The translations under genes and the position numbers were made by a program. A stretch of DNA of 62,141 nucleotides. Origin: Omnitrophica bacterium GWA2_41_15. GTDB lineage: Bacteria > Omnitrophota > Gorgyraeia > Gygaellales > Profunditerraquicolaceae. The stretch spans positions 1-62,141 of the forward strand of contig CAKKQZ010000060.1 of assembly GCA_919902445.1 (NCBI GenBank), in the 5' to 3' direction. The notes under the pieces were generated by a model. It was not told the DNA's origin, ran no database searches, and saw only the letters and a list, made by a program, of their open reading frames with translations. Shown one piece after another: positions 10,915 to 61,678 of this stretch (positions are counted from its first letter, which is position 1; each line of letters starts with the position of its first letter).

Positions 10915-10916
10915 AG

Positions 10917-31828: not shown

Positions 31829-31838
31829 AGGATAAATT

Positions 31839-32876: not shown

Positions 32877-32877
32877 A

Positions 32878-33444: not shown

Positions 33445-33447
33445 TCC

Positions 33448-34077: not shown

Positions 34078-34080
34078 ATA

Positions 34081-34674
34081 ATGAACACAACCAGCCCTTT
34101 AATTTTACTTATTGCTTCAATATTCACCCATAATATCGCCCTTACCTATATATTGGGGATGTGCCCGTTTATAGTCATCTCCAAGAATTTTAAAACAGCG
34201 GTCGGTATGGGGGTTTCGATTATCTTTGTAGTTACCTTGACCGCAGTCATCAACTGGCCCATATACTGGCTTATTCTGGTTCCGGCAAAAGCGCAGATTG
34301 TTTCGTATTTAATATTTATCATCGTGATTGCGGCAACGGTCCAATTACTTGAGATGCTTATTGAAAAATTCTTTCCTACTTTGCAGTCTTCCTTCGGAAT
34401 ATTCCTTCCCTTGATTACGGTTAACTGTATTGTTTTGGCTGTATGTTTATTCATGGTCTTAAGGAATTATAATTTTATCCAGACGGTTTTTTATTCTTTC
34501 GGCACAAGCGCCGGCTGGGCGTTCGCCATCGTTATTATGGCGGCAATAAAAGAAAAACTTGCGTTAGTCGCAGATATACCCTTAGGGCTAAGAGGGGCGG
34601 GTATCACCATGATTATCGCAGGGCTTATGGCTTTTGCTTTTATGGGTTTTGCCGGGATGATTACCCTCCAGTAA
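34081..34674 (+). CDS. nqrE: NqrE/RnfA-family membrane subunit
   Basis: FTHNIALTYILGMCPF and LITVNCIVLAV motifs. Confidence 0.85.
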   Translation: MNTTSPLILLIASIFTHNIALTYILGMCPFIVISKNFKTAVGMGVSIIFVVTLTAVINWPIYWLILVPAKAQIVSYLIFIIVIAATVQLLEMLIEKFFPTLQSSFGIFLPLITVNCIVLAVCLFMVLRNYNFIQTVFYSFGTSAGWAFAIVIMAAIKEKLALVADIPLGLRGAGITMIIAGLMAFAFMGFAGMITLQ

Positions 34675-34720
34675 CTAATATTTGATACGAGAACTGAGAA
34701 TCTAGCATCAAGGATATAGA

Positions 34721-36732: not shown

Positions 36733-36741
36733 AAGGTCGTT

Positions 36742-40121: not shown

Positions 40122-41112
40122 CCTCGGATGCCCTCATTGTAGGGCTAGCGCAACCACTGAACCTTCACCCGAAGATTTAACCACGGATGAAGTAAAGAAA
40201 TTTATGGAACAGGCGGCTACATTTAGCAGGCCGATTTTAGTATTTTCCGGAGGAGAGCCGATATTGCGTAATGATCTGTATGAACTGCTTAGTTACGCAA
40301 ACAAGTTGGGATTAAAGCCGGCGCTGGCAACCAACGCCACTTTGATTTCCGAAGAAATTGCCTATAAATTAAAAGATAATGGCCTTAGCCTTGCTTCTGT
40401 TTCGATTTATGGCGCAAATGCAGAATCTCACGATTCATTTTGCGGGTTAAACGGCGCCTTTGAGAAGACATTAAAAGGAATAAATAATCTAAAAAAGGCA
40501 AAAGTCAATGTGCAGATAAATACTACTATAAGCAAAAAAAATTTAAAAGAATTGGAGGTAATAGGAGATTTTGCTTTAAAAATCGGCGCAGTAGCGTACC
40601 ATACCTTCTTTTTAGTTCCCACAGGCAGAGGAAGATATATCGAGGATGATGAAATATCCTCTCAAGAATATGAGAAGGCATTCAATCGCTTATATGATTA
40701 TCAGAAAGTTTTTCCTCTACGCATAAAAGCAACTTGCGCTCCCCATTATTACCGGATTTTACATATGAAAGAAGCAAAAACTAACGAAAGGTCAGACAAT
40801 GAGAAAAGTCGAGGCAAAGGATGCCTTGCCGGTCAGGGTGTTTGCTTTATCTCTCATAAGGGTGAGGTATTTGGTTGTGGATATTTACCTATTATAGCCG
40901 GTAACATTAGAAAACAAGATTTTAGGGATATTTGGTTTAAAAGTGAACTTTTTATAACCTTAAGAGATAATTCAAGATTACAGGGTAAATGCGGAGTTTG
41001 TGAATTTAAGGATGTCTGTGGTGGTTGTAGGGCGCGTGCCTATGCAGCCACAGGAAATTATTTAGAGGAGGATACAAAATGCGCCTATCAGCCCTTGACA
41101 AAAAGATTTTAA
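40072..41112 (+). CDS. radical SAM/SPASM protein, AhbC/AhbD/NirJ family (second copy)
   Basis: CNLGCPHC, GGEPIL, and C-terminal CGVCEFKDVCGGCRARA. Confidence 0.7.
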   Translation: MLTDIRLIFWETTRACNLGCPHCRASATTEPSPEDLTTDEVKKFMEQAATFSRPILVFSGGEPILRNDLYELLSYANKLGLKPALATNATLISEEIAYKLKDNGLSLASVSIYGANAESHDSFCGLNGAFEKTLKGINNLKKAKVNVQINTTISKKNLKELEVIGDFALKIGAVAYHTFFLVPTGRGRYIEDDEISSQEYEKAFNRLYDYQKVFPLRIKATCAPHYYRILHMKEAKTNERSDNEKSRGKGCLAGQGVCFISHKGEVFGCGYLPIIAGNIRKQDFRDIWFKSELFITLRDNSRLQGKCGVCEFKDVCGGCRARAYAATGNYLEEDTKCAYQPLTKRF

Positions 41113-41528
41113 ATAAAATTCAAGAAGATATTCCGTTAGTTCCTGAGCCATTTAAGGCATTGGCTAAAGATACAGGCGTTACTGAAGAGGATTTATTTAA
41201 GAGAATAGAAGAATTAAAAAACAAAGGAATCATCAGAGGCCATGCTGTAGGCATAAATCATAAAATTTTAGGTTTTAAGAGTACGCTTTTGGGCTTAAGA
41301 GTGTTGCAAGATAAGGTTGAAAGCTTAGGTAAAGAACTTGCGGCATATCCGGAAATTACCCATTGTTTCCAGCGTAAAGGTGAATTTAATCTCTGGGCTG
41401 TATTCATTTATAAGGATGGGAGATTAAAAGAGTTCCTGGATAAACTTGGCCAAAAAATTGGCAAAGAAAATATCTTGAATCTCAAGACATTAAGAAAGTT
41501 TAAGCTAAAGACAAGATTGAAGATTTAA
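41079..41528 (+). CDS. AsnC/Lrp-fold siroheme decarboxylase subunit (AhbA/AhbB/NirDLGH family)
   Basis: LDKKILNKIQEDIPLVPEPFKALAKDTGVTEEDLFKRIEELKNKGIIRG is the typical N-terminus of this family. Confidence 0.7.
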   Translation: MRLSALDKKILNKIQEDIPLVPEPFKALAKDTGVTEEDLFKRIEELKNKGIIRGHAVGINHKILGFKSTLLGLRVLQDKVESLGKELAAYPEITHCFQRKGEFNLWAVFIYKDGRLKEFLDKLGQKIGKENILNLKTLRKFKLKTRLKI

Positions 41529-41541: not shown

Positions 41542-41570
41542 TTGACAAACAGGATTAAGTTATTTATCAT
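41542..41570 (+). promoter_or_regulatory. sigma70-type promoter (TTGACA-17 nt-TATCAT)
   Basis: The TTG taken as the ORF start in the track is the -35 hexamer. The -10 is at 41565-41570. Confidence 0.55.
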
Positions 41571-41622
41571 AGGTTTATTCAGTTGTTTATTCAGTAACAG
41601 GTGTGCCATGAGGGAGGTTAGG

Positions 41623-42963
41623 ATGGGAAGAAAAAATCTGGTATTGTTAGGTATAAGTTTTTTTATGAGTTTATTTTTTATTAATTCTGCTTTTGCTATA
41701 CCTACCTTTGCCCGTAAGTATCGCACCAGTTGTAATACCTGCCATATAGCCATACCCAAACTAACTGCTTTTGGTGAATCTTATCGTTTGAATGGTTATC
41801 AGATTCCCGAAGGAGATGCAGCCTATGTAAAAGAAGAGCCGGTAAGTTTAGGTGCGCCTGCCTGGAAAAGGGTCTGGCCCGAGGCAGTTTGGCCGGGTAT
41901 GATTCCAGGGCCGGTGCCACTTTCCGTAAGAATCATTTCTGATTTTAAAGTTAATCAGGCAAGTGAAGCCGCAAGTACAGACTTTAATTTTCCCCATGAA
42001 ATAGAGTTGATGATGGCTGGCCTTTTAGATGAAAATCTGCCATTTTTTGCCGAAATTGAATTTGAAAAAGAGACTAGTTCAAGTTCAGTAGAAACTGATG
42101 TTGAGGCCTGGCTTGGTTTCTATAATCTATTTAGTAATGCATTACCGGAAAGGGCTCTTAATCTGAAAGTGGGAACGCTGGGGATTAATCCTTTACCTAT
42201 GGCTAATGACCACCTAAGAATCGGAAAGAACCACTATTTATATAATGACTGGAGATTAAGTAGCGCTTCTTCTGGAGCCAATGGTTTTCGTTTGAGAGAT
42301 CATCGAGGAGGTTTAGAACTGAATGGAATTTTGGCTGACCGCTTCTGGTACGGTGGCGGTGTAGTTAATGGAGTAAATTCTACGGATAAAGACGGTTATA
42401 TTATTACAAGATATAAATTCGGCGGGACACCTTTTAGCAAGTCAGCTCCTGGCGGAGGAACTGAAGAGGCCATAAAAGGGAAGGCAAGTGGTTTCTGGGT
42501 GGATAATGCCTTGGAGTTAGCCAGCTTTGGCTATTTTGGTTCCACGGAGATTGGTGCAGCAGCTACTGCTAACCAGGAAGACGATAAATTCTGGCGCGCG
42601 GGATTTGCTTTGCGCAATACCTACCAAAATTTTGATCTTAATGCCGGCTATATCTGGGGCAACAATGATGATCCTTATGGTAGTAGTAGCGCTCAGAACA
42701 TAAATTCACAAAGTTGGTTTGTGGAGACAAACTATGTATTTAAACCCTGGCTTATCGGAGAATTAAGATACGAAGCACTTGACGTAGATATGCCCACAGA
42801 TTTCACAGTTACCAATTTAGATAGGGCAAGGTGGGTTCCTGGTTTAATCTTTCAGATCAGGCCCAATATTAAGCTGGTGGCAGAGGCTTTAATCTACAGT
42901 AAGTATAAAGTAGCCAGTGATAGACAGAATAACTTTGTAGCGCGTTTGGATGCCAACTTTTAG
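41623..42963 (+). CDS. fused monoheme cytochrome c / outer-membrane beta-barrel, Cyc2-like candidate
   Basis: ATG 41623 after GGGAGG. Signal peptide ending SAFA, then PTFARKYRTSCNTCH (single CXXCH). About 400 aa rich in Gly and aromatic residues, ending in ...FVARLDANF (OMP-type C-terminal Phe). Confidence 0.6.
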   Translation: MGRKNLVLLGISFFMSLFFINSAFAIPTFARKYRTSCNTCHIAIPKLTAFGESYRLNGYQIPEGDAAYVKEEPVSLGAPAWKRVWPEAVWPGMIPGPVPLSVRIISDFKVNQASEAASTDFNFPHEIELMMAGLLDENLPFFAEIEFEKETSSSSVETDVEAWLGFYNLFSNALPERALNLKVGTLGINPLPMANDHLRIGKNHYLYNDWRLSSASSGANGFRLRDHRGGLELNGILADRFWYGGGVVNGVNSTDKDGYIITRYKFGGTPFSKSAPGGGTEEAIKGKASGFWVDNALELASFGYFGSTEIGAAATANQEDDKFWRAGFALRNTYQNFDLNAGYIWGNNDDPYGSSSAQNINSQSWFVETNYVFKPWLIGELRYEALDVDMPTDFTVTNLDRARWVPGLIFQIRPNIKLVAEALIYSKYKVASDRQNNFVARLDANF

Positions 42964-43004
42964 TGAGTGTTAGCAGTATCTTAGTTTGGCTACTTAAAAT
43001 TGAG

Positions 43005-43044
43005 AACCCTTCCCCCCTTTTTATGAGGGGAAGGGTTATTTTTT
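43005..43044 (+). terminator. rho-independent terminator
   Basis: 11-bp stem AACCCTTCCCC / GGGGAAGGGTT followed by ATTTTTT. Confidence 0.65.
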
Positions 43045-43058
43045 AAGGAGGTAAGCAA

Positions 43059-43640
43059 ATGGGAAGAGTCATTTCTATTTTTTTGTTTTTGGTTATTTTC
43101 TGTTCAGAACCCTCTTTTGCAGGAGTAATTAAAGGCAAAGTTTCAACAGCGAAGTTAAAGGCACCCAAAGACATTGTAGTATATATAGACAAAATAGAAG
43201 GAAAAGAGCTTTCTTCATCTGGAGAGCCTGCAAAGATGGACCAGATTAAGCTGGTGTTTATCCCTTATGTTCTTCCTATAATCAAAGGCACAACTGTTGA
43301 GTTTCATAATAGTGATGATGTAAAGCATAATGTCTTTGCTGTAGGTACAGAAAATTTTGATTTAGGTACCTGGACCAAGGGGATCACCAAGTCATATACC
43401 TTTAATAAATTAGGAGATACAGCCATTCTTTGTAATGTGCATCCTGAAATGGAGGCATATGTTTTTGTGCTCCAGAATCCCTATTTTGCTATTACTGATG
43501 AAAATGGACAATACCAGATAAAAGATGTTCCCAGTGGTAGCTATAAATTAAAGGCCTGGCATAATCGGTTAAAGCCGGTTACAAAAGATGTGGATGTAGC
43601 TGCATCAGGAGAACTAAGTGTAGATTTTGAGCTCAAATAG
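43059..43640 (+). CDS. secreted type-1-like cupredoxin fused to a carboxypeptidase-regulatory-like (CarboxypepD_reg) domain
   Basis: Signal peptide. Candidate Cu ligands FHNSDDVKHNV ... CNVHPEM. Then ITDENGQYQIKDVPSGSYKLKAWH. Confidence 0.7.
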   Translation: MGRVISIFLFLVIFCSEPSFAGVIKGKVSTAKLKAPKDIVVYIDKIEGKELSSSGEPAKMDQIKLVFIPYVLPIIKGTTVEFHNSDDVKHNVFAVGTENFDLGTWTKGITKSYTFNKLGDTAILCNVHPEMEAYVFVLQNPYFAITDENGQYQIKDVPSGSYKLKAWHNRLKPVTKDVDVAASGELSVDFELK

Positions 43641-44150
43641 ATGAAAATAAAAAACAATATTCTTATCTTAGGTTTTTTATTTTGTGGTCTGGGTATTTTA
43701 GCAGGCCTTTTGCTGGCGAAGGCTAAGGTTTCTCTTCCTGTGCATAGACAGATTAGTATTGTATCTTATAAATATGGATATGAGCCAGCTGTGATACGGG
43801 TAAATCAAGGAGATACGATTACTTTGAAGTTAAAATCTAAAGACGTAACCCATGGTTTTTATCTTGAGGGGTATGATTTTGATGCCAAGGTAAGAGGGGA
43901 GATGCCGAGTTTCTGGATCAGGCATCCTTCGAAAAGCGAAGAATACGATAAAAACCCGATAGAAACCTATACCTTTGTGGCAAATAAGCCGGGTAAGTTT
44001 CGTTACCGTTGTTCTATAACTTGCGGCTCATTTCACCCATTTATGCAGGGAGAAATGATTGTTGTGCCCAATTACCTCTTCCCTGTTTCTACCGGGTTAG
44101 CTTTAGGTATGGTCTTTACCTGCCTGATTTATTTTAAGCGAAAAAGATGA
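43641..44150 (+). CDS. membrane-anchored cupredoxin with CuA-type motif (type A)
   Basis: N- and C-terminal TM helices. DVTHGF plus CSITCGSFHPFM (C-x3-C-x3-H-x2-M). Paralogue of 57711-58187. Confidence 0.65.
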   Translation: MKIKNNILILGFLFCGLGILAGLLLAKAKVSLPVHRQISIVSYKYGYEPAVIRVNQGDTITLKLKSKDVTHGFYLEGYDFDAKVRGEMPSFWIRHPSKSEEYDKNPIETYTFVANKPGKFRYRCSITCGSFHPFMQGEMIVVPNYLFPVSTGLALGMVFTCLIYFKRKR

Positions 44151-46978
44151 TTGATTTATTTGAAAAATTGCCCTTTTTATTAAAAGTCTGTAAAAGCCGA
44201 TGGCTGCAGTTTATCATTGTCTTTCCTACCTTATTAATATTTATTGTTTTTCTTTATGCCGGCATTTTTGGAACTCCGGTAGGAAACAAAAATATTATCA
44301 TTGTGTTTGTTTGGATTTTCTGGTGGATTTTGCTTATCGGTTTTATGGTGCCATTTGCATCACGTATATGGTGCTTGGTATGTCCTTTCCCGATTATTGG
44401 CGAATGGCTTCAACGTATGGCATTTATTAAGGTAAGGACTAGCGATACCCTATCAGGCTTAAAAAGTAAATACTTCGGAAAAAATAAACCTTGGCCAAAG
44501 AAACACAGGCACATCTGGTTTCAAAGCCTGGGTTTTCTATCCTTGGCGGTATTCAGCCCATTTTTAGTTACGCGCCCCTTTGTAAGTTTCATTGTCTTGG
44601 GTGGGTTATTTGCGGCGGCAACAGCATTAAGTTTAATCTATAAACAAAGGGTATTTTGTATGTATCTTTGCCCGGTAAGTGGATTCTTAGGGCTTTATTC
44701 TATGACCTCAAAACTTGGGCTTCGGGCAAAAGATGTAGAGTTGTGCAACCGCATTAAGAAAGATGAAGAGTTTAATTTTGATTATGGCATTGCAGCTTGT
44801 AGATTAAGCTGTCCCACAGGCATGGATGCCTCAAGTTATATTGCACTTATAGGCAGAGGCAGATACAAAGAAGCCCTGGAGGTAATAAAAGAAGCATCCC
44901 CCTTTGCTGGCGTTTTAGGCAGGGTGTGCACTCACCCCTGCGAGACTGAATGTGTTCGCAAAGAACTGGATGAGCCCATTTCTATTTGCCGCCTGAAGAG
45001 GTTTGTGGGAGATTATATAGGCTACAATGAGATGCAGCCAGCACAGGAGTTTAAACCGCGTTATAAAGAAAAAATAGCTATTATAGGCGCTGGACCTGCA
45101 GGTTTATCCTGCGCCTATCATTTAGTCAGGAATGGATACCAGACTACTGTTTATGAGGCACTTCCTGTTGCCGGCGGGATGATAAGAGTGGGCATTCCTT
45201 CATATAGACTGCCCAAAGACATTGTTGATAGAGAGATAGAGTATATAAAAAATAGTGGCGCGGATATTCGGACCAATATAGAGATTGGTCGGGATTTAGA
45301 TTTTGAGGAATTAAGAAAGGAGAACCAAGCAATATTTATTGCTGTTGGCGCTTCAGAGTCAAGGAGGCTGAAGATAGAAGGAGAGGATTTAAAAGGTGTT
45401 TACAATGCAATAGATATTTTACAGAAAGTAAGTTTGGGAGAGAAATTAGATTTGGGTAAAAGGGTTATAGTTATTGGCGGAGGTGATACAGCAATAGATA
45501 CAGCCCGGGCAATGCTCAGGCTGGGTTGCAATGAAGTCAGGATAGCATATCGGCGCACTAGAGACGAAATGCCTGCTATACCTGAAGAGGTAGTTGCTGC
45601 AGAAAAGGAAGGTATAAAAATAGATTTTCTTACTGCGCCGGTAAAGATTGAAGGAAGCAATGGCAGGGCAACATCCCTTCTCTGCACAAAGATGAGGTTA
45701 GGTCAACCTGATGAATCTGGAAGGCCACAACCTGTGCAAATCAAGGGTTCTGAGTATCTGATTTCAACTGACAGTATAATTGTAGCTACCGGACAATATT
45801 CAGATATAAACTTTTTACCCAAGGAATTAAGCATAAGTACTGCTGGCACCATAATCGTGGATACTCAAGACATGGTTACTAATATCCCTGGTATTTTTGC
45901 TGGTGGAGATGTGGTGAGCGGGCCTGATATTCTCGTTAAGGCCTTAGGTATGGGTAGGAGGGCTTCTATCGCCATTGACAGGTACCTGCGAGGTGAAGAA
46001 TTAAGCCGTATTTCTTTTTATCCTTCAGAGAAGAGGGTTGAGGAGGTACCCATAGGAATAATTGACAGAGAAGATAGGGTTAAATCACGCTTTCGACCAA
46101 TTGAGGAACGCATTAAAGATTTTAAAGAAGTAGAAGAGGTGTTTACAGAAAATATGGCAGTTCGGGAAGCCAAGAGATGCTTGAGTTGCGGAATATGCGG
46201 GGCGTGTTACCGTGGTTCAGATAAAGGATGGGCCTGCGCTTGGTTTGAAAAGATGGGGGGAATGGATAGAAATAATTATTGTGGCTTATGTATGGAGTGC
46301 GTAAAAAGCTGCCCCTATGATAATATCGGGCTCTATTGGCGGCCATTTGCTTGGGATAAAGATATCAAGGGTTATGATGAATCCTGGAAGTCCTTTATTA
46401 TGCTAGTCTTAGCGATTATTTATTCTATCAATTTGTTAAGCCCTTGGGGCAAGCTTAAGAATTTTCTTAACTTTACTGAAACAGGCACAGTAGGTCATTT
46501 TATCTTACTTAGTGTGAATATGCTTTTATGGTGCCTGGCACTATTTCCATCTATTCATTATCTCTTCTGCAAATTTTCCCAGTTGTTATCTAGGTCTAAA
46601 GAGGTGGAGACAAAAGAATTATTCTTAAAGTATTCCTATGCTTATGTTCCTTTGGGTCTTATGGCCTGGGTGTGTTTTAGCGTGCCGCTACTATTGATTA
46701 ATGGCAGTTATATCCTGGCAGTGATTTCCGACCCCTTTGGTTGGGGCTGGAACCTTTTTGGCACAGCGCATCTTCATTGGAGCCCTATATTACCGCACTG
46801 GGTTCCTTACATACAGGCACTTTTTATATTAGCAGGACTTTTCTACTCTGTAGTATCTGTATTTAAAATAGCCAAGAGGATATTTTCTCAAAAAGAAGAG
46901 GCTTTAAAAAGTATTATTCCCATAGTTGCGCTGCTTTTAATAATAACTATAATCTTTTTTAGGTTATATTTGGGTTAG
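44147..46978 (+). CDS. NapH-like polytopic Fe-S membrane protein with an inserted GltD-like NAD(P)H flavoprotein module
   Basis: WCLVCPFP and FCMYLCPVSG in the TM region. Insert carries CPTGMD...CTHPCETEC, IAIIGAGPAGL and VIGGGDTAID. It rejoins at CGLCMECVKSCPYDN, and the C-terminal TM part ISDPFGWGWNLFGTAH is shared with ORF 58180. Confidence 0.75.
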   Translation: MIDLFEKLPFLLKVCKSRWLQFIIVFPTLLIFIVFLYAGIFGTPVGNKNIIIVFVWIFWWILLIGFMVPFASRIWCLVCPFPIIGEWLQRMAFIKVRTSDTLSGLKSKYFGKNKPWPKKHRHIWFQSLGFLSLAVFSPFLVTRPFVSFIVLGGLFAAATALSLIYKQRVFCMYLCPVSGFLGLYSMTSKLGLRAKDVELCNRIKKDEEFNFDYGIAACRLSCPTGMDASSYIALIGRGRYKEALEVIKEASPFAGVLGRVCTHPCETECVRKELDEPISICRLKRFVGDYIGYNEMQPAQEFKPRYKEKIAIIGAGPAGLSCAYHLVRNGYQTTVYEALPVAGGMIRVGIPSYRLPKDIVDREIEYIKNSGADIRTNIEIGRDLDFEELRKENQAIFIAVGASESRRLKIEGEDLKGVYNAIDILQKVSLGEKLDLGKRVIVIGGGDTAIDTARAMLRLGCNEVRIAYRRTRDEMPAIPEEVVAAEKEGIKIDFLTAPVKIEGSNGRATSLLCTKMRLGQPDESGRPQPVQIKGSEYLISTDSIIVATGQYSDINFLPKELSISTAGTIIVDTQDMVTNIPGIFAGGDVVSGPDILVKALGMGRRASIAIDRYLRGEELSRISFYPSEKRVEEVPIGIIDREDRVKSRFRPIEERIKDFKEVEEVFTENMAVREAKRCLSCGICGACYRGSDKGWACAWFEKMGGMDRNNYCGLCMECVKSCPYDNIGLYWRPFAWDKDIKGYDESWKSFIMLVLAIIYSINLLSPWGKLKNFLNFTETGTVGHFILLSVNMLLWCLALFPSIHYLFCKFSQLLSRSKEVETKELFLKYSYAYVPLGLMAWVCFSVPLLLINGSYILAVISDPFGWGWNLFGTAHLHWSPILPHWVPYIQALFILAGLFYSVVSVFKIAKRIFSQKEEALKSIIPIVALLLIITIIFFRLYLG

Positions 46979-46983
46979 GGGTA

Positions 46984-47457
46984 ATGAAAAAAGAAAATAT
47001 AATAGAGATTTTTCTTTTAGTTTTAGTGGTGGCGTCGGTCATTTTACTCCCCCTTGTTATTATAAAAATTGATAAATACTATCTGGCCAGAAAATTTCCT
47101 AAAAATGCACAGGTGATAACCCTTTACGGCATAGCCAAGGGAGGCCTCTGGACCCAGGAACCGGTTAACAGCTTTAATTACTGGTGGAAGAGGTTTAAAC
47201 GTGCAGAAGAAATTCCCATCCGTGATGACGGCACTCCTATTTTTTTCCGCATAACCAGCACAGACGTGGTACACAGTTTTGCTATTCCTCTTTATCGTAT
47301 AGGTCCTTATGATATAAAGCCAGGAGAATTTACAGAGGTTGAACTTAAAACAGATAAAGAATTAGTAGATACGGGCTTTCTCTGTTGGCAATATTGCGAT
47401 AAAGACCACGAACATATGAAAGGCAGATTAGTTATCTTACCTAAAAATGAGGAGTGA
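46984..47457 (+). CDS. N-terminally anchored cupredoxin with CuA-type motif (type B)
   Basis: TM helix. DVVHSF plus CWQYCDKDHEHM (C-x3-C-x3-H-x2-M). Paralogue of 59609-59998. Confidence 0.6.
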   Translation: MKKENIIEIFLLVLVVASVILLPLVIIKIDKYYLARKFPKNAQVITLYGIAKGGLWTQEPVNSFNYWWKRFKRAEEIPIRDDGTPIFFRITSTDVVHSFAIPLYRIGPYDIKPGEFTEVELKTDKELVDTGFLCWQYCDKDHEHMKGRLVILPKNEE

Positions 47458-50795: not shown

Positions 50796-51176
50796 ATGGC
50801 TAATACAAAAATACTGATAGTTGACGACGAAAAAGAGATATTAGATGCCTTAAGCAGTATTTTAAAGCGCGCTAACTATAAAGTTTTCCACAACTAAAGG
50901 AAAAGAGGCGGTTGATTAGCCAAAAAAATAATTCCTGACGCAATTATCCTGGACATTATGATGCCTGATATGTCAGGAGATGAAGTTACTGCCGCGCTAT
51001 TAAAAGGCCATTCCACTGCAAAAATCCCCATAATATTCTTAACCGCAATCCTTACCAAAGAAGAAGAAATGGTAAGAGGAAATTTTGGCAGGCAGTTTGT
51101 CATAGTAAAGCCTACCACCGTAGAGAAAATCCTGGAAATGGTTAAGAACGTCCTTGCCGCTAATCCAGCCAGTTAA
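50796..51176 (+). pseudogene. response-regulator receiver with a compensated pair of frameshifts
   Basis: MANTKILIVDDEKEILD...KVF in frame A. STTKGKEAVD is readable only in frame +1 (50887-50916). LAKKIIPDAIILDIMMPDMSGDEV...VIVKP is back in frame A. Frame A has TAA at 50895 and TGA at 50913. Confidence 0.65.
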
Positions 51177-51272: not shown

Positions 51273-51677
51273 ATGCAATTTATCCTACGCAATTCTGACT
51301 ACGCATTAAGAAGCCTCAGCTTTTTGGCAGGCCTTCCTAGGGGTAAGAAAATCAAAGTAAGCACAATAGCGGAAAAACAGGATCTGCCCCCTGCTTTTTT
51401 AAGGAAGATCCTTCTTAAGCTATCCAAGGCGAGGATTGTTGAGTCCAGATCCGGGCCCTGCGGAGGTTTCTCTTTGTCAAGGAAGCCGTCTCAGATTAGC
51501 TTAAAAGAGGTTTTAGAGGCGGTTCAGGGCCGCGTTTCCCTGAATGACTGCCTGTATGATTCTAATTTCTGCAGCCGCTGGAGAAGGTGCAGTGTCAGGC
51601 CGGGGTTATCCGTAATACAGGATAAGTTAATAGGCCTGCTCGATGAATGTAATCTCGGGGATTTTCTTAAGTTATGA
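51273..51677 (+). CDS. Rrf2-family (IscR/NsrR-like) Fe-S transcriptional regulator
   Basis: N-terminal wHTH (DYALRSLSFLA) and a three-Cys cluster CLYDSNFCSRWRRC. The stop codon overlaps the start of the molybdoenzyme gene. Confidence 0.85.
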   Translation: MQFILRNSDYALRSLSFLAGLPRGKKIKVSTIAEKQDLPPAFLRKILLKLSKARIVESRSGPCGGFSLSRKPSQISLKEVLEAVQGRVSLNDCLYDSNFCSRWRRCSVRPGLSVIQDKLIGLLDECNLGDFLKL

Positions 51678-54600: not shown

Positions 54601-55096
54601 TGATGACAGGCCTTTCAGGGGTTGGCAGAAAAAACCTGAAGACTATAAAGTGCACCGGGCGATGATGCGCGCAAGATATTATCTTGGTATTCCAAGGGGG
54701 ATTTTACGCTCGTGGTTTAATATGTACGTTGCTACCTACGGCTCAGTTGAAGGGCATGAGCAGAATTCGGATAAACTCGCCAGAAACCCGCGCACTGGAT
54801 ATCAGGCGATGTTTAGATACGGGTCGCATCAATCGGCAACAAGGGCGTGGCTTAAGCCGACCTTGATGACAGACTCCTTGGCAAGGAAAGAATACTTCGG
54901 CCAGGTTATAGGAAAAGGTTTTGCCGCCGATATCTACTGCACTACCGGAGCTCCGAAAGAATCATTTGTAAAGATAAGCAAGGCAGAGGATGGCGGGATA
55001 AAGGATAAATTATGGCGGCCTGCAAAATTGGGTTTGCGCCCGGGATATGAAACTGAAGCAATGAAAAAATTCCTCAAGGGAGAATTTATTACATGA
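51674..55096 (+). CDS. type II DMSO-reductase-family molybdopterin oxidoreductase, alpha subunit (Nxr/Nar/Ser/Ebd-like, periplasmic)
   Basis: 1140 aa. Tat-like TRKQFLK signal. N-terminal Fe-S site [12 protein letters not shown]...C. Length and pattern match NarG/NxrA-type catalytic subunits. Confidence 0.85.
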
Positions 55097-56235
55097 ACTA
55101 TAAGGTTTATAACTGGCAATTAAAACGCCAGATGGATTATAAATACCCGGATAACCGGCCTAAAAAGCAGGTTGCCTGGGTTTTTGATACCAATAAATGC
55201 ATTGCCTGCCAGACCTGCACGCTTGCCTGCAAGAATGCCTGGACATCCGGAAAGGGCCAGGAGTATATGTGGTGGAATAATGTAGAGTCCAAGCCCTGGG
55301 GATTTTATCCGTTAGGTTGGGATGTGCGGCTTCTGGAAAAATTAGGGCCCCAGGACTGGAAGGGGGATAAATATATAGGTAAGACCATTTTTGAAAGCGC
55401 ACCCGAAGGCGAGGAGGTGTTGGGGATTACACCGGAAGTAGTTGAGTGGGTGTACCCGAATATCGGAGAAGATGAGGTGAGCAGCATTATACATAATAAG
55501 GATTATATAAAGATCCCGCAGCAGCCATGGATGTTTTATTTACAGAGGATCTGTAATCACTGCACCTATCCCGGCTGTTTGGCTGCCTGTCCGAGGAAGT
55601 CTATTTATAAAAGGCAGGAGGACGGGATAGTCCTTATCGACCAGGAAAGATGCCGCGGGTACCAGGAGTGCGTGCAGGGCTGCCCGTATAAAAAATCGAT
55701 GTTTAGGCCTCATACGCAAAAGTCAGAAAAATGCATCTCTTGTTATCCCGCAGTAGAAAAGGGAATGCAGACCCAGTGCGTGATAAATTGTATCGGAAAA
55801 ATTAGGTTATTCGGTTTTAAAGGCAGATACGGCTCGCCGCGCGAAGATAACCCTATAGACTACCTCATACATTTTAAAAAAATTGCCTTGCCGCTTTATC
55901 CGCAGTTTGGCACTGAGCCGAATGTTTATTATATCCCGCCGATAAATGTCCCGCACGCCTTTAACCAGCAATTATTCGGCCCCGGCTCGAAAAAGTCCGT
56001 TGAGTCATACAAAAAGGCTGTTGAGGATAAGCGCCTTATAGGGCTGCTGATGCTTTTCGGCGCTACTGATTTGATTATTGATTCATTTGATGTCAAGGGG
56101 GGTATAAATGACGGCTTTTGCATCGGCTATAACGATAAGGGTGAAGAGATTGTAAGGGTTCCTTTAAAAGAGCCGGTTATTATTAGGAAAGAATATGATG
56201 AAGAGCGAGATGTGCGTAGAGTTAGTATTACCTAA
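55093..56235 (+). CDS. Fe-S beta subunit (NarH/NxrB-like)
   Basis: Four Cys groups: CIACQTCTLAC, CNHCTYPGCLAACP, CRGYQECVQGCP, CISCYP...CVINC. Confidence 0.85.
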   Translation: MNYKVYNWQLKRQMDYKYPDNRPKKQVAWVFDTNKCIACQTCTLACKNAWTSGKGQEYMWWNNVESKPWGFYPLGWDVRLLEKLGPQDWKGDKYIGKTIFESAPEGEEVLGITPEVVEWVYPNIGEDEVSSIIHNKDYIKIPQQPWMFYLQRICNHCTYPGCLAACPRKSIYKRQEDGIVLIDQERCRGYQECVQGCPYKKSMFRPHTQKSEKCISCYPAVEKGMQTQCVINCIGKIRLFGFKGRYGSPREDNPIDYLIHFKKIALPLYPQFGTEPNVYYIPPINVPHAFNQQLFGPGSKKSVESYKKAVEDKRLIGLLMLFGATDLIIDSFDVKGGINDGFCIGYNDKGEEIVRVPLKEPVIIRKEYDEERDVRRVSIT

Positions 56236-56794
56236 ATCAAAAGCGTTATCAAGCCAATTCGAAAAAGTTGCGCAGGAGAGGCTGTTTGCTTATAAAATGT
56301 TTTCTGCGGCGTTCAATTATCCAGACGATACCTTTTTAAGTTTTTTCCCGGAAGAAAATAAAGAAAAGCTTTTACCGGAATATGATTCGCTTTTCCGCGC
56401 CAATGAAATCTGGCTTTATAGCACAGAGTATTTGGCTGAAAATGAATTCCAGAGGGCAAATTTCCTTGCCGATATATCCGGTTTTTACCGCGCCTTCGGG
56501 CTAGAAATAGATAAAGAAAGGCCTGATTTCCTGGCCACGGAGCTTGAATTTATGCATTTTCTGATTTTTAAGCAGATGTACGCTCTTTGCCGTAATATCA
56601 ATGATTCAAAAGAAAAAGCCGCCATATGCCTTGATGCTCAAAAAAAGTTTTTCAATACATATATTTATCCCTCAGCAAAAAGAATCGCTCAAAAAGTTAT
56701 TGGCAAGAGCAAAGCGGGCTTTTATAAAAGAAAAGCGATAGAGATGCTTGAGTTTCTTGAGTTAGAAATGAAATACATGGAAAAGAAGAAATGA
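56195..56794 (+). CDS. TorD/NarJ-family maturation chaperone (delta subunit)
   Basis: RLFAYKMFSAAFNYP...YDSLF...PDFLATELEFMHFL matches the TorD-like pattern. Start is uncertain because of a 41-nt overlap with the beta subunit. Confidence 0.65.
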   Translation: MMKSEMCVELVLPKSKALSSQFEKVAQERLFAYKMFSAAFNYPDDTFLSFFPEENKEKLLPEYDSLFRANEIWLYSTEYLAENEFQRANFLADISGFYRAFGLEIDKERPDFLATELEFMHFLIFKQMYALCRNINDSKEKAAICLDAQKKFFNTYIYPSAKRIAQKVIGKSKAGFYKRKAIEMLEFLELEMKYMEKKK

Positions 56795-57633
56795 AGAAAT
56801 CTGTTATAATCCTGATCTGCATTGCGGCAGTAATATTATTCGCTCTCCTTGTCAATTACGGAGCTACACATGTCAGGGGAGTTCCGGTTAAAATAGTAGA
56901 ACAGAAGGCCGAGGTTCTTGAAGTGCCGTTTTTTGACAAAGACATAGACTTGAATAAGGGCATTGCAACGGATTTCTGGAGCGGCCTTAAGCCGCAGGAA
57001 ATAAAACTTATTTATCAACTCATGGCCTTACCCTGGCCAAAAAGCTCAACGCCTATGGTTAAAGTAACAGCGTTTCATAATACCAAAGATATTTATTTTT
57101 ACATGGAATGGATTGATGAGACTGAGGATAAGATTTTAGGAGTAAATAAGTTCTCTGATGCCTGCGCAATTATGTTTCCGATGGATGAAAAGGCGCAGGC
57201 CCCGACGCTGATGATGGGTTTTCTGGGAAGAGCGGATATCTGGCACTGGAAGGCAAGCCGGGACATTCAGTTCTGGTTGAAGGAAGAGCCTGTAAATAAT
57301 AAGGTGTATGTAGACCTGTATTATCCGTTTGAAGACAAAGAGACGCTGGTAGTTTCCAAGGAAATCGTAAAGTCAGCAGTAAATGACCTTACGGCTATAA
57401 GAGTAGGCACGGTTACTCCTAAAGAAAACCAGTATGTTGAGGGAAGAGGGTTTTATAATCAGGGTGTATGGCAGGTAGTCTTTAAACGTTCACTTAAAGC
57501 GGTTGATGCGCAGAATGATGCGATTTTTAATAGCGGCAAGCGGCTATGCGCCTTTGCCGTCTGGAACGGCTCAAAAGGAGAGCGCGGCGGCAGAAAATCC
57601 ATCTCAGACTGGGTAGAACTACTAATTAAATAG
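56791..57633 (+). CDS. heme-b gamma subunit, ethylbenzene-dehydrogenase-gamma (EB_dh) family
   Basis: N-terminal hydrophobic segment. SDACAIMFPMDE...MMGFLGRADIWHWKA...AFAVWNGS resembles EbdC/SerC/NxrC-type gamma subunits. Confidence 0.65.
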   Translation: MKKSVIILICIAAVILFALLVNYGATHVRGVPVKIVEQKAEVLEVPFFDKDIDLNKGIATDFWSGLKPQEIKLIYQLMALPWPKSSTPMVKVTAFHNTKDIYFYMEWIDETEDKILGVNKFSDACAIMFPMDEKAQAPTLMMGFLGRADIWHWKASRDIQFWLKEEPVNNKVYVDLYYPFEDKETLVVSKEIVKSAVNDLTAIRVGTVTPKENQYVEGRGFYNQGVWQVVFKRSLKAVDAQNDAIFNSGKRLCAFAVWNGSKGERGGRKSISDWVELLIK

Positions 57634-57690
57634 GGACACCCTTTCTGCTAAAGCTAAGCCGCTCTTTCTGCCAATCTTAAGGGTGTCCCC
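57632..57690. repeat. 59-nt TIR element (copy B)
   Basis: AGGGACACCCTT ... AAGGGTGTCCC terminal inverted repeats (11 bp). The interior matches copy A at 30151-30209 in reverse orientation. Confidence 0.7.
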
Positions 57691-57710
57691 AATAAGGTAA
57701 GGAATAAGAA

Positions 57711-58187
57711 ATGAAAAAACTAATTATTGTCCTGCTCTCGGTTTTATGTTTTACAGCTACTTCTTACGCAGCTGAAAGGTTCTTTGAAATCAAGGCGAAA
57801 AGATTTGTCTATACTCCCAGCATTATCAAGGTAAATAAGGGTGATTTAGTCAGGATCCGCCTTATTAGCGAAGATGTGACCCACGGTTTTTTCCTCGACG
57901 GTTACGGCCTAAATACGTCTACGCATCCGGGACAGGAAGGATTCCTGCAATTTGTTGCGGATAAGCCGGGAAGATTTACTTTTAGGTGCTCGGTTACCTG
58001 CGGAGAATTTCATCCTTATATGGTAGGATATTTTGTAGTAGAAAAAAACCTGCGCCTTTACTTATTTGTGCTTTTGACCGTTCTTTTAGGAGTGGGAAGC
58101 CTTTTAATAATTCTTAAGAATAAACCGCAACAGGCTCATGATAATAATCCGCCGCAGGAGCCAACTATGAATACCAGTAATGGATAA
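57711..58187 (+). CDS. cupredoxin with CuA-type motif (type A), signal peptide plus C-terminal TM anchor
   Basis: DVTHGF plus CSVTCGEFHPYM. Paralogue of 43641-44150. Confidence 0.65.
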   Translation: MKKLIIVLLSVLCFTATSYAAERFFEIKAKRFVYTPSIIKVNKGDLVRIRLISEDVTHGFFLDGYGLNTSTHPGQEGFLQFVADKPGRFTFRCSVTCGEFHPYMVGYFVVEKNLRLYLFVLLTVLLGVGSLLIILKNKPQQAHDNNPPQEPTMNTSNG

Positions 58188-59604
58188 TAAAGATAAATTA
58201 TTCGGCTTGATAGATCTAAACTGGAGGTTTGAACTCACAAAGTTTAAGCAGGTCGGGAAGCTTTTTAAATCCCGCTGGTTTCCGCTCCTTCCTATTATCG
58301 TAAATCTTTTTATTTTTGTCATAATTTTACTCGCCGGTTTTATCGGAGGCTATTCCTCCGGGAGTTACAATTTCGGGATCATGATTGTCTGGATACTCTG
58401 GTGGGTAATGCTGATGTTTATTCTGGTTCCCGGTTTTTCGCGGTCATGGTGCCTTATGTGCCCGTTTCCCATATTCTCCGACTGGTTTCAAAGGAAAAGG
58501 CTCTTCGGCGTCAGGCAGGGTAAGCTGGAAGGGCTGGGGCTTAAATGGCCGAAACAACTTAAAAATATGTGGGTGATGAATATCGGTTTTTTAGTCACGA
58601 CATTCTTCTCCGGGCTTTTTACCGTAAAACCTTTCGCTACTTTTGTGCTTTTGGGAGGAATAATTCTGCTTGCTTTCTTAATCGGTTTAATCTTTGAAAA
58701 GCGCTCTTTTTGTTTGTACGTCTGCCCGGTTTCAGGATTCCAGGGGCTTTATGCACAGTTTGCGACTGCTGAAATAAGAAGGATGAACCCTGAGCTTTGC
58801 AAGAACCATAAAGTTAAAACCTGTTTTGTGGGTAATGAATGCGGATACGGCTGCCCTTGGATGCTCACCCCCTTTGATTTTAAGAAAAATACTTACTGCG
58901 GTATGTGCCTTGAATGTTTTAAGACCTGCCCTTATGATAATATGGGATTTTTCCTAAGGCCGCCCGGAGTAGATTTGCTTTCCGATACTCCGAGAGAGCC
59001 GCGCCGGCTTGATGAGGCGTGGAAGGCCTTTATTATGCTTGGGATTGCCGCTGTGTTTTTCTTAACTATGCAGGGGCCATGGGGGGTATTAAAGGATATG
59101 GTCCGCCAGGCGACATTTAAGGGCTGGCTTATTTTTATAACCCTGCATTCATTCTTCTGCCTTGTCGGTATACCGGGGATTTTCTTTATCTTCTCATGCC
59201 TCTCCAAATTATTCAGCGGAAACAAAGAGGTTTCCTTAAGGCAAATTTTTATAAATTTCGCTTACACTCTTGTGCCTATTGGGTTAGGCGTTTGGATTGC
59301 ATTTAGCGTCGGGATAATACTTCCTAACGGCAGCTACCTCATTCATGTGATCTCTGACCCCTTTGCCTGGGGTTGGAATCTTTTTGGCACAGCGCATTTC
59401 CCTTGGACTCCGGTATTCACCGGAAGCTTGGGGTATATACAAGGCTTTGTCCTGGTAATTTTTTACTTATTCGCAACAGCCTTAGGGTTTCGTCTTTCAA
59501 AGCAGACTTACCTCGACTTAAGCCAGGCAAAGCGGGGTTGGATTCCGATTTTAATATTCTTAACTTTAGTTACGATATTATTTTTGTGGTTATATCTGGG
59601 GTGA
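58180..59604 (+). CDS. NapH-like polytopic Fe-S membrane protein (no flavoprotein insert)
   Basis: WCLMCPFP, FCLYVCPVSG, CFVGNECGYGCPW, CGMCLECFKTCPYDN, and C-terminal ISDPFAWGWNLFGTAH. Collinear with the N- and C-terminal parts of ORF 44147. Confidence 0.7.
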   Translation: MDNKDKLFGLIDLNWRFELTKFKQVGKLFKSRWFPLLPIIVNLFIFVIILLAGFIGGYSSGSYNFGIMIVWILWWVMLMFILVPGFSRSWCLMCPFPIFSDWFQRKRLFGVRQGKLEGLGLKWPKQLKNMWVMNIGFLVTTFFSGLFTVKPFATFVLLGGIILLAFLIGLIFEKRSFCLYVCPVSGFQGLYAQFATAEIRRMNPELCKNHKVKTCFVGNECGYGCPWMLTPFDFKKNTYCGMCLECFKTCPYDNMGFFLRPPGVDLLSDTPREPRRLDEAWKAFIMLGIAAVFFLTMQGPWGVLKDMVRQATFKGWLIFITLHSFFCLVGIPGIFFIFSCLSKLFSGNKEVSLRQIFINFAYTLVPIGLGVWIAFSVGIILPNGSYLIHVISDPFAWGWNLFGTAHFPWTPVFTGSLGYIQGFVLVIFYLFATALGFRLSKQTYLDLSQAKRGWIPILIFLTLVTILFLWLYLG

Positions 59605-59608
59605 GAAT

Positions 59609-59998
59609 ATGCAGAAAAAAGAATTAATCGCTGGTTTACTAGTGGTTTTATCAACAGTAGGGACTGTTGCCGGTATTTACGGTATTGAGAATTACCGCAG
59701 GAAAAAATTCTATACTGTTGAACTTATTGCCCGGGCCCCTGAAAACGGAAATTGGTACCCGCAGCAGCTCAAAATCCCCTACGGGATGAAAGAAGTGAAG
59801 ATCCTCATACGCAATATAGAAACTGTTACCCACGGATTCGCTATTCCTGATTTAGGTGTTGCGGTTGGCCAGATTAAGGCAGGAGAGGTAAAGGTAGTCA
59901 GGTTTATCCCTGACAAAAGAGGAACTTTCCCGTTTATGTGCACGGTCTGGTGCTCAACCCGCCATATGCAGATGCGCGGCGAATTGATTATTGAATAA
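59609..59998 (+). CDS. N-terminally anchored cupredoxin with CuA-type motif (type B)
   Basis: TVTHGF plus CTVWCSTRHMQM. Paralogue of 46984-47457. Its 3' end overlaps the convergent kinase gene by 11 nt. Confidence 0.6.
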   Translation: MQKKELIAGLLVVLSTVGTVAGIYGIENYRRKKFYTVELIARAPENGNWYPQQLKIPYGMKEVKILIRNIETVTHGFAIPDLGVAVGQIKAGEVKVVRFIPDKRGTFPFMCTVWCSTRHMQMRGELIIE

Positions 59999-61106
59999 TA
60001 AAATCACGTTTAGTGTTTTTGTTAAGGGTGAGAAGTTCAAAATAGAATTTGCTTCCTTTAGCCACCGTGCTCTCAACCCAGATTCTTCCATGATGCATTT
60101 CCAAAATCCGCTTACTTATAGTTAGGCCCAAGCCGCACCCGCCGTATTTTCTCTTTCCCGAAGAATCCACCTGATAAAATTTATCAAAAATCCTATCCAG
60201 TTTATCCTGTGTTATTCCTATACCTGTATCCAAGATGCAAAAAACTATCTTCTCATTTTGCGTAGAAGTATCCGCAGCTATAGAAACTTTACCTCCCGCA
60301 CGGTTGAATTTAATCGCATTCTCAAGAAGATTGGTTATTACCTGCAGTATCCTTTCTGCGTCAGCTAATACCAAAGGCAGGCCTTTTGGCAGGCTGTTTT
60401 CCAGGGTAATGCCCTGTTCGTTTGCAAGAATCTGCAGGGAAGCTTTTGCTTTTTCCGCAACTTCCAAAATATCCACAGGGCGCAGGTTAACCTTGAATTC
60501 CCCAGCTTCTATCTTTGAAAGATCCAGCAGTTCTTCTATCAAATGGTTAAGATGAATAGCGCTTTCTTCGCTTAGCCGTAGGCATTCTTTTTGCCCGGGA
60601 TTTAAACTTCCGGATTTCTCGCTTATTAAAAAAGAAATGTACCCTTGTATAGTGGTAAGCGGCGTGCGTAATTCATGGGAGACCATGGATAAAAAATTAG
60701 ATTTAAGCCGGTCTAATTCCTTTAGCTTTTTATTTACAAGTTCCAGTTCCAGGTTTTTTTTGATAAGGTTTTTTTCAAATTCCTCTATTTTCTGTTGTTT
60801 GGTCTGCCTTATAGTCCCCATTGCCCCGAAGACTACGCCAAAAAATAGAGGATGCAGCAGGAATATGATTTGAAAAGGGTGGATAGAGATTAAATGGTTT
60901 ATATTGGATAGAGTTACATTTAGCCCCGAGGAAAGTAAGTCAATCCCTAAGGTTACAAAGGGTATGGGAATACCCCAGAGAATGCCAAAGAAACAATACC
61001 AGTTTTTAAAGAGATTATAAGTTCTTTTCTGGCAAAGGGCCCTTATAAATTCCCTGACTACCTGCGCGAAAGACGCAAAATCAATATTTAAACCGGGTTT
61101 ATCCAT
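59988..61106 (-). CDS. membrane sensor histidine kinase
   Basis: TM N-terminus, HisKA SHELRTPL, HATPase GGCGLGLTISKRILEMHHG. Confidence 0.85.
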   Translation of the reverse strand: MDKPGLNIDFASFAQVVREFIRALCQKRTYNLFKNWYCFFGILWGIPIPFVTLGIDLLSSGLNVTLSNINHLISIHPFQIIFLLHPLFFGVVFGAMGTIRQTKQQKIEEFEKNLIKKNLELELVNKKLKELDRLKSNFLSMVSHELRTPLTTIQGYISFLISEKSGSLNPGQKECLRLSEESAIHLNHLIEELLDLSKIEAGEFKVNLRPVDILEVAEKAKASLQILANEQGITLENSLPKGLPLVLADAERILQVITNLLENAIKFNRAGGKVSIAADTSTQNEKIVFCILDTGIGITQDKLDRIFDKFYQVDSSGKRKYGGCGLGLTISKRILEMHHGRIWVESTVAKGSKFYFELLTLNKNTKRDFIIQ

Positions 61107-61678
61107 TATTCAATGAGGAGGTATTCTTTGATTTTTTTTACCAGTTCCTGGGCTTTAAAGGGCTTGGAAATGTAGTCACTTGCTCCGCAGGAGAGCATTT
61201 TCTTAACTTCCTTGGGGCCTTTTAAGACTGTCACCGCTATAATAGGTATATCCTTGGTTTTTTCGTCAGCCTTAAGCTGTTTGCATACTTCAAAACCGTT
61301 CATTTCCGGCATAAGGAAATCAAGAATCACTATATCCGGGAGTTCTTTAGAGATCAATAGCCCCGCCTGAAATCCGCTGCTTGCGGTTGAAACTTCAAAA
61401 TCCGCTTCTGCCGAAAGTACGGTTTCAATCATCCTCAGGATCTTTGGGTCATCATCCACAACCAATACCCTGTGTTTTTCCGCTTTCAGCAATTCTTCAG
61501 GGATGGGCATATTATTTTTCTTCATCAGTTTTAATAAATCATCCCTTTTGATTCTGCGATGGCCTCCGGGAGTGGAATAGGCAGGGAGCAGGCCTTCCTT
61601 TACCCAGTTTATGACCGTGGTAGGATAGACATCGCAGAATTTGCTTATTTCATGCGTGGTATAAAATTTTTTACCCAT
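61106..61678 (-). CDS. response regulator with N-terminal excisionase/MerR-type HTH
   Basis: YTTHEISKFCDVYPTTVINWVKEGLLPAYSTPGGHRRI, then receiver motifs VLVVDDD, VILDFLMPEMNG and TVLKGP. Confidence 0.85.
   Translation of the reverse strand: MGKKFYTTHEISKFCDVYPTTVINWVKEGLLPAYSTPGGHRRIKRDDLLKLMKKNNMPIPEELLKAEKHRVLVVDDDPKILRMIETVLSAEADFEVSTASSGFQAGLLISKELPDIVILDFLMPEMNGFEVCKQLKADEKTKDIPIIAVTVLKGPKEVKKMLSCGASDYISKPFKAQELVKKIKEYLLIE

Follow-up and report, generated by a model that had tools for sequence, protein, structure and literature searches.

Which carriers supply electrons to a nitrate reductase-like molybdoenzyme whose operon encodes no cytochrome c? The question is raised by a gene cluster of Omnitrophica bacterium GWA2_41_15 on the 62,141-nt contig CAKKQZ010000060.1 (assembly GCA_919902445.1), the whole of which we refer to as the window; all coordinates are on the forward strand. 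The enzyme belongs to the clade of nitrite oxidoreductase (NXR) and periplasmic Nar, and is encoded by genes for a catalytic subunit (alpha), an iron-sulfur (Fe-S) subunit (beta), a chaperone (delta) and a heme-b subunit (gamma). The last three genes of the cluster, here termed the triad, encode a cupredoxin (cupA), a membrane protein (mem) and a second cupredoxin (cupB). The initial annotation had reported that a cupredoxin, NapH-like, cupredoxin triad follows the molybdoenzyme after a 59-nt repeat, with no cytochrome c gene, and the open reading frame (ORF) map, profile searches and a scan for CxxCH bear this out. No gene of the cluster has a CxxCH motif, and the sole ORF with this motif in the 62-kb window is at 41542-42963. 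Genes for NapG and NapAB were not identified within the cluster in the ORF map or by profile searches, and no heme-copper subunit I or oxidase is encoded in the window. We consider it probable that the triad is a membrane electron-input module for a periplasm-facing nitrate reductase of the NXR/Nar type.

Gene neighborhoods, the comparison put forward in the initial annotation, tie the triad to the enzyme. A genome scan anchored on mem recovered 80 loci from Omnitrophota, Planctomycetota, Acidobacteriota, Chloroflexota, Hakubella, Methanoperedens and others. These comprise a close mem clade of 56 loci (at least 50% identity) and a distant clade of 24 loci that resembles another triad in the window (triad 1, with its membrane protein mem1). 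The loci closest to the window cluster are from Omnitrophota and Planctomycetota. Within the close clade, which includes many bacterial phyla as well as archaea, mem identity across loci is 56-80%. Alpha is encoded 5' on the same strand in 30 of the 35 close-clade loci that have at least 7.5 kb of flank, and gamma is 5' of mem in 40/41. CupA occurs in 45/45 and cupB is 3' of mem in 51/51. Alpha, beta or gamma occur in none of the 24 distant-clade loci, where both cupredoxins are nearly always retained.

A reciprocal metagenome scan, anchored on alpha, yielded 38 loci that extend 6 kb or more downstream. The triad is present in 17, all of which have the order alpha-beta-delta-gamma and a gamma subunit 39-64% identical to that of the window. 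The other 21 have a more distant gamma (25-35% identity) and usually show alpha-beta-gamma-delta; in two of them, CxxCH occurs both in the ORF with the gamma match and in a second ORF close by. The two groups overlap in alpha identity (60-81% with the triad and 56-72% without it), while gamma identity separates them. Thus, the triad follows the gamma type and the gene order, not alpha identity, and is one among several wirings of this enzyme clade.

Gene fusions link neighboring members of the set. Gamma and cupA are fused in one ORF (EB_dh plus Cupredoxin/COX2) in two metagenome-assembled genomes (MAGs; L021, 8614-9924, and L023, 8496-9956), and cupA is fused to mem in at least six protein clusters (P0027, P0046, P0068, P0080, P0101 and P0106). 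The cupA-mem fusions place cupA outside and the N-terminus of mem inside, in agreement with NapH topology. The heme-b subunit gamma is the docking point of the triad. The gamma-cupA fusions keep the former cupA signal peptide as a linker. In many loci we also identified Sco1/SenC, a CuA assembly factor, either between gamma and cupA or after cupB; one gamma-plus-triad locus without Nar genes (L028) is cut off after Sco1. The alpha subunit of L023, a locus labelled Brocadiaceae, scores 1037 bits to Kuenenia NxrA. We take this locus as a relative only and not as a canonical anammox nxr cluster, and the triad could not be shown in a bona fide anammox nxr cluster.

The same arrangement is known from Methanoperedens, where it was described as NarG-NarH-NarJ-Orf7-HCOII-NapH-HCOII (MPEBLZ_02035-02041; Arshad et al. 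2015, PMC4683180) and proposed to be 'an unusual nitrate reducing membrane-bound complex'. The NapH protein in that cluster has 9 helices, including five additional ones at its C-terminal end, and is accompanied by two single-helix HCO II-like proteins; NapG and NapAB partners are lacking there too (PMC4683180). A 2026 paper names the cluster a non-canonical nitrate reductase (PMC13079737). All seven of its genes are highly transcribed during nitrate-dependent methane oxidation (630-1396 reads per kilobase per million; PMC4683180). Together, the neighborhoods (30/35 and 17/38 loci), the fusions and this transcription sustain the proposal of the initial annotation that the triad is a functional partner of the molybdoenzyme, in place of the cytochromes of its relatives. 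Its description of a copper route as uncharacterised stands in that the literature searched holds no biochemistry, but the arrangement itself had been published for Methanoperedens (PMC4683180, PMC13079737). Its statement that blue copper proteins have been noted in the anammox nxr cluster is also supported (PMC11791136).

Some relatives of the triad have other partners. Four loci (L024, L027, L030 and L035) have the order rrf2-gamma-cupA/mem-cupB-Sco1-cupredoxin-NosZ-like, without Nar genes. In a full-library search the mem family comprises 250 proteins (each representing one 50%-identity cluster) at E <= 1e-30, some of which have flavoprotein inserts, N-terminal thioredoxin-like domains, or an N-terminal cytochrome c554-like domain in place of cupA. 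Because the partners interchange in this way (gamma plus triad linked to NosZ; c554-like domains replacing cupA), the triad may be regarded as a generic electron-delivery module. Its sequences describe a modular membrane electron-transfer unit with a predicted periplasmic head of either CuA or heme c. Examples of the domain variants are P0190, P0235, P0121 and P0123, with N-terminal cytochrome c554-like or AhpC/TSA thioredoxin-like domains and, in several cases, a flavoprotein insert. The NosZ-like protein of L035 (locus 8315-15063) scores 482 bits on the Sec-type NosZ model, below the cut-off of 625. In Acidobacteriota-type loci a rubrerythrin gene stands between cupA and mem (L033, 9418-9927; L036-L039 have similar spacing).

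The copper sites of the triad are predicted to be of the CuA type. Both cupA and cupB have the ligand set His...Cys-x3-Cys-x3-His-x2-Met (H...CxxxCxxxHxxM) found in COX2 and NosZ, in the form H...CSVTCGEFHPYM in cupA and H...CTVWCSTRHMQM in cupB. CupA passes the COX2 Pfam model, and cupB, at 21.8 bits, is just below the cut-off of 22. The C-terminal domains of NosZ and CoxB models match both cupredoxins in part. When an AlphaFold2 (AF2) model of a natural cupA-mem fusion was compared with the PDB by Foldseek, only CuA domains of nitrous oxide reductase (N2OR) were matched (prob 1.0, E 7e-5, 27-33% identity). Of 129 homologous cupredoxin ORFs, 119 have the ligand motif; several of the other ten are truncated at contig ends and the rest are divergent, low-identity matches. 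Thus, cupA and cupB are best read as CuA-type cupredoxins, with a predicted binuclear site. The initial annotation had called them blue-copper proteins, a label that we rejected on account of the ligand set, the COX2, NosZ and CoxB matches and the N2OR CuA fold. The single-Cys mononuclear type-1 site (His, Cys, His, Met) does not fit, as the second Cys of the CuA-typical CxxxC pair is present in all four cupredoxins of both triads.

The membrane protein is no more than a distant relative of NapH. Fer4_5, a generic model, is the sole Pfam model passed (cut-off 22), and the napH model (NapH/MauN, TIGR02163) gives 21 bits against a cut-off of 213, so that membership in canonical NapH was rejected. 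The term NapH-like used in the initial annotation holds in the sense of distant relationship only. Eleven Cys are conserved (at least 97%) in 76 mem homologues from both clades. They form C91/C94-P (CxxCP, after helix 2), C178/C182-P (CxxxCP, after helix 4), C207/C215/C225-P (C-x7-C-x9-CP) and C240/C243/C246/C250-P (CxxCxxCxxxCP). The two Cys-x(2-3)-Cys-Pro motifs and two cytoplasmic ferredoxin-type clusters of NapH/MauN-type proteins are thus represented, although one cluster motif is atypical. Also conserved in the family are a VWIxWW helix and an SDPxxxGW loop. No His is conserved throughout the 76 homologues. Heme b in mem was considered as a trans-membrane carrier and rejected, as H323 and H389 are kept in the close clade only and not in the distant clade or mem1.

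AF2 models of mem (predicted local distance difference test 74-75.5, predicted template modeling score 0.78-0.81) have about nine long helices, with a Cys-rich domain between helices 4 and 5 and a C-terminal five-helix extension. No relative was found in the PDB by sequence (phmmer, E <= 1) or by fold (best Foldseek match of the AF2 model E 0.28, prob 0.07). As the initial annotation had noted, this second copy of the triad lacks a flavoprotein insert. The insert occupies about residues 224-685 of mem1 (44147-46978, 943 aa), and mem aligns on both sides of it (27-226 with 13-223 and 214-474 with 686-943) at 38-39% identity. The insert sits in the cytoplasmic Fe-S domain of mem1, which places those clusters on an electron path.

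Table 1. Coordinates of the cluster, its intergenic repeat, its convergent neighbors and the paralogous triad in the window.
Feature	Coordinates	Strand	Family evidence
triad 1: cupA1, mem1 with GltD-like NAD(P)H flavoprotein insert, cupB1	43641..47457	+	distant mem clade
rrf2, Rrf2-family regulator (NsrR/IscR-like)	51273..51677	+	Pfam Rrf2 104.7 bits; NCBIfam rrf2_super 97.6 bits
alpha, molybdopterin catalytic subunit, NXR/periplasmic-Nar clade, 1140 aa	51674..55096	+	Pfam Molybdopterin; DMSO_red_II_alp 324 bits
beta, Fe-S subunit (NarH/NxrB-like), four-cluster	55093..56235	+	Fer4_11 95.9 bits; DMSO_red_II_bet 266 bits
delta, NarJ/TorD-type assembly chaperone	56195..56794	+	Nitrate_red_del 53 bits
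gamma, heme-b subunit (EB_dh family; Orf7/NxrC-like), N-terminal signal or anchor	56791..57633	+	EB_dh 99.2 bits
59-nt palindromic REP-like repeat	57631..57689		in 77-nt gamma-cupA gap
cupA, predicted CuA-type cupredoxin (HCO II-like), 158 aa, signal peptide and C-terminal membrane anchor	57711..58187	+	Cupredoxin_1 36.6 bits; COX2 31.5 bits
mem, about nine-helix Fe-S membrane protein, distant NapH/NosH relative, 474 aa	58180..59604	+	Fer4_5 27.2 bits
cupB, predicted CuA-type cupredoxin (HCO II-like), 129 aa, N-terminal membrane helix	59609..59998	+	Cupredoxin_1 36.3 bits
convergent two-component pair	59988..61678	-	histidine kinase 59988-61106 (HisKA/HATPase_c); response regulator 61106-61678 (Response_reg/HTH_17)

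The best explanation of the locus is that rrf2-alpha-beta-delta-gamma-cupA-mem-cupB is one operon that ends in the triad, because the genes overlap or abut (spacing from rrf2 to cupB of -4, -4, -41, -4, +77, -8 and +4 nt, the first being the overlap of the rrf2 3' end with the alpha start) and no promoter-like (sigma-70-like) or terminator-like site was identified in the 77-nt gap. The convergent two-component pair is the 3' boundary of the operon; the initial annotation had correctly placed an 11-nt overlap between the end of cupB and the stop of the histidine kinase gene (59988 vs 59998). A homologue of rrf2 is also 5' of the cluster in L006, L009, L017, L021 and L052 and is present in the NosZ-linked loci. 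The NsrR model of NCBIfam gives 53.5 bits for the rrf2 product, under its cut-off. Alpha matches Kuenenia NxrA (7b04_B), its best solved relative, over the full length at 904 bits, and gamma matches Kuenenia NxrC (7b04_C) at E 7.5e-21. The alpha N-terminus has a Tat-like TRKQFLK motif, with RK where the twin-arginine signal has RR.

An inverted copy of the gap repeat, with 86% complementarity, is found at 30152-30210, and the window contains its arms four times where 0.41 occurrences would be expected. The predicted fold is an 11-bp hairpin (-21.7 kcal/mol) with a z-score of only -1.2 and without a U tract. A 94%-identical relative (L161) has identical arms at the same site and a different loop. 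An intrinsic terminator or a promoter region was rejected given the z-score, the lack of a U tract and the lack of a site match. We treat the element as a REP-like intergenic repeat. Further palindromic intergenic elements with GGGAC(A/G)... arms are at 30129-30210, where a partial tandem copy adjoins the second 59-nt element, at 12994-13068, and at 28567-28612 with 29257-29302. The last two are a 46-nt inverted repeat pair that flanks a 196-aa ORF at 28689-29279.

We infer the following order of carriers, donor and direction. Mem would be reduced by the quinol pool or, via its cytoplasmic Fe-S clusters, by a cytoplasmic donor, and would pass the electrons to CuA centers on the external side of the membrane. 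CupA would then reduce heme b of gamma, from which electrons would pass along the beta Fe-S chain to the Mo site for conversion of nitrate to nitrite. Both donors had been named in the initial annotation and are retained here as candidates. Quinol seems the most likely donor because of the distant analogy to NapH, whose relatives are regarded as quinol dehydrogenases (PMC4683180, citing Brondijk 2004, Kern & Simon 2008), and because an Nqr-like operon and prenyl genes are encoded in the window. We count the Nqr-like NADH dehydrogenase, the prenyl and polyprenyl genes, MoeA and the beta-oxidation genes of the window in favor of the proposed electron input. The direction, nitrogen oxide reduction rather than oxidation, is suggested by the organisms that carry the cluster. 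A periplasmic location of cupB is suggested indirectly, by the presence of Sco1 and by the fact that no mem-cupB fusions were seen.

Several points weigh against this proposal. The triad is absent from 21 of the 38 related enzyme loci. The predicted location is cytoplasmic for the Fe-S clusters but periplasmic for the CuA domains, and the alignment of 76 mem homologues has no conserved heme ligand or other membrane-bridging cofactor site. Given a NapH score so far below the cut-off, the case for quinol oxidation is one of distant analogy only. The direction is not readable from sequence, because the alpha clade holds both nitrite oxidizers and nitrate reducers (Methanoperedens, Thermogutta). 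The topology of cupB is ambiguous by the positive-inside rule, with mean K+R counts of about 2 in the short segment N-terminal to the helix and about 3 in the 15 residues that follow it. Finally, the literature searched contains no biochemical study of the triad or of any of its members.

The first alternative is that a ferredoxin or other soluble cytoplasmic donor reduces the Fe-S clusters of mem and that electrons cross to CuA without quinol. We regard this as unlikely, although mem1 carries its NAD(P)H-oxidizing GltD-like flavoprotein in the same Fe-S domain (insert forms recur in P0123 and others), both clades retain every one of the 11 Cys in the cytoplasmic motifs, and the cluster of Methanoperedens BLZ2 adjoins two CO dehydrogenase (cooS) genes, producers of reduced ferredoxin (PMC13079737). 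The missing membrane-bridging cofactor site counts against this route as well. NapH relatives are viewed as quinol dehydrogenases, and the Nqr-like NADH:quinone oxidoreductase and prenyltransferase genes of the window suggest a quinone pool.

Decidedly less probable is that the enzyme is a nitrite oxidoreductase and that the triad drains the gamma heme via CuA to the membrane, with quinone or another compound as acceptor. High CuA potentials would suit electrons from nitrite, the best solved alpha relative is the Kuenenia nitrite oxidoreductase, the clade includes many nitrite oxidizers, and NXR is reversible. However, Methanoperedens, the closest characterized organisms with the exact cluster, are nitrate reducers. 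So is Thermogutta terrifontis of the same alpha clade, and the full cluster is present in a family-level relative of it, the Thermoguttaceae MAG L017. The window lacks an oxidase or heme-copper subunit I, and transfer of electrons from nitrite into quinone would be strongly uphill. Moreover, the NosZ-linked variants require electron delivery, not removal.

That the triad is a separate neighbor for copper handling, CuA maturation or a nitrogen-oxide enzyme of its own is very improbable: the triad occurs without the molybdoenzyme in 24/24 distant-clade and 5/35 close-clade loci, the hairpin repeat stands between gamma and the triad, and Sco1 and thioredoxin-like domains co-occur, but gamma-cupA and cupA-mem are fused, the triad occurs in strict dependence on the gamma type, bacteria and archaea share the gene order and strand, no candidate catalytic metal site beyond CuA and Fe-S was identified, and Sco1 is separately encoded, which makes the triad a client of CuA assembly and not an assembly factor.

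The triad may have a more general role. We suggest, tentatively, that it founds a widespread and structurally unsolved family of heme-free membrane modules in which CuA replaces c-type cytochromes and links the membrane or cytoplasm to varied periplasmic partners. These partners would be NXR/Nar-type enzymes, via the heme-b subunit, and NosZ. For the form with the flavoprotein insert they would be blue-copper and porin-cytochrome-like proteins, possibly in extracellular electron transfer.

The surroundings of triad 1 (region 41542-47457) include, on the 5' side, the 473-aa ORF at 41542-42963, which has a single N-terminal CxxCH and no family match and by eye is porin-cytochrome/Cyc2-like. Also encoded 5' is a protein of 193 aa that combines a CarboxypepD_reg domain with C-x2-H-x2-M, a possible type-1 copper motif; ResB/CcsA come after the triad. 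Homologues of the 193-aa protein were identified in 10 of the 24 distant-clade loci and those of the 473-aa ORF in 7. This region may represent an extracellular electron-transfer route.

Elsewhere in the window, a six-gene Nqr-like operon (RnfC/NqrA-like, RnfD/NqrB, FMN_bind, two Rnf-Nqr subunits and an NqrF-type 2Fe-2S/FAD/NAD protein) and the genes after it, for a UbiA prenyltransferase, a polyprenyl synthetase and MoeA, are at 30329-38939. Next to these, two radical-SAM/SPASM genes and an AsnC-like ORF (38943-41528) may belong to an alternative heme biosynthesis. A set of genes for fatty-acid beta-oxidation (AMP-binding ligase, thiolase, enoyl-CoA hydratase/3-hydroxyacyl-CoA dehydrogenase and acyl-CoA dehydrogenase; 8165-14945) suggests a respiring heterotroph. 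A single-domain response-regulator gene at 50796-51176 has in-frame stops at about 50895 and 50913, leaving only its last 72 codons as an ORF, and is likely a pseudogene. We also identified a duplication of about 350 bp (797-1152 and 19298-19656, 76-94% identical), which covers a small two-gene pair (ORFs of 100 and 111 aa in the first copy), and a tetranucleotide microsatellite at 1444-1514 that changes from (AAAC)n to (AAGC)n.

How periplasm-facing Nar and NXR enzymes without NarI connect to the membrane, and whether this step conserves energy, matters for nitrate-dependent methane oxidation and for uncultured NXR-like lineages. The solution found in Methanoperedens, two CuA-type proteins and a NapH-like protein, is a mobile and highly conserved package that can also serve NosZ. 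The gamma type together with the triad can be used as an annotation marker for this wiring, and the proteins are targets for purification and spectroscopy. In the literature searched we found no paper on the spread of the triad in bacteria, its fusions or its NosZ-linked form. On its own, the window does not establish a new type of system; what is new is a bacterial member of a known one. The finding would carry more weight if the triad were a general heme-free CuA route.

The module resembles NapGH, NosGH and NosR in having a polytopic membrane protein that bears CxxxCP-type motifs together with ferredoxin-type Cys clusters on the cytoplasmic side, and in being encoded beside a periplasmic N-oxide reductase; some of its relatives adjoin NosZ. 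Unlike these systems, the window has neither the periplasmic ferredoxin NapG/NosG nor the NosR flavin domain, mem has five extra helices, and the periplasmic partners are predicted CuA cupredoxins. With the CuA domains of COX2 and N2OR the cupredoxins share the fold and the ligand motif, and in relatives Sco1/SenC is encoded nearby; however, they are stand-alone proteins anchored by a single helix, in a cluster without heme-copper subunit I or a CuZ propeller. The NXR of anammox bacteria, Nitrospira and Nitrospina and the periplasmic Nar of haloarchaea (NarGH-Orf7 with NarBC) have homologous alpha, beta and gamma subunits and the same periplasmic orientation, and copper proteins are encoded in the anammox cluster too. 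The wiring reported for those systems is different, consisting of c-type cytochromes, blue copper proteins, membrane-anchored NxrC or a Rieske/cytochrome b pair.

The Methanoperedens cluster is the closest match. The window differs in its bacterial host, the Rrf2 gene joined into the operon, the REP-like hairpin 5' of cupA, the lack of an adjacent cooS, and the second, flavoprotein-bearing paralogue of the triad in the genome. Both clusters consist of the same seven genes, identically ordered on a single strand, and that of the window is collinear with the Methanoperedens loci L029, L032, L040, L042 and L044. Identity to the Methanoperedens loci is 77-78% for alpha, 74-76% for beta, 50-58% for gamma, 56-58% for mem, 47-57% for cupA and 44-57% for cupB. 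The modeled mem also has about nine helices (four NapH-like and five C-terminal) and is likewise accompanied by two single-helix HCO II-like proteins. By these comparisons, the window cluster is the bacterial counterpart of the Methanoperedens non-canonical nitrate reductase, in an arrangement that was already published.

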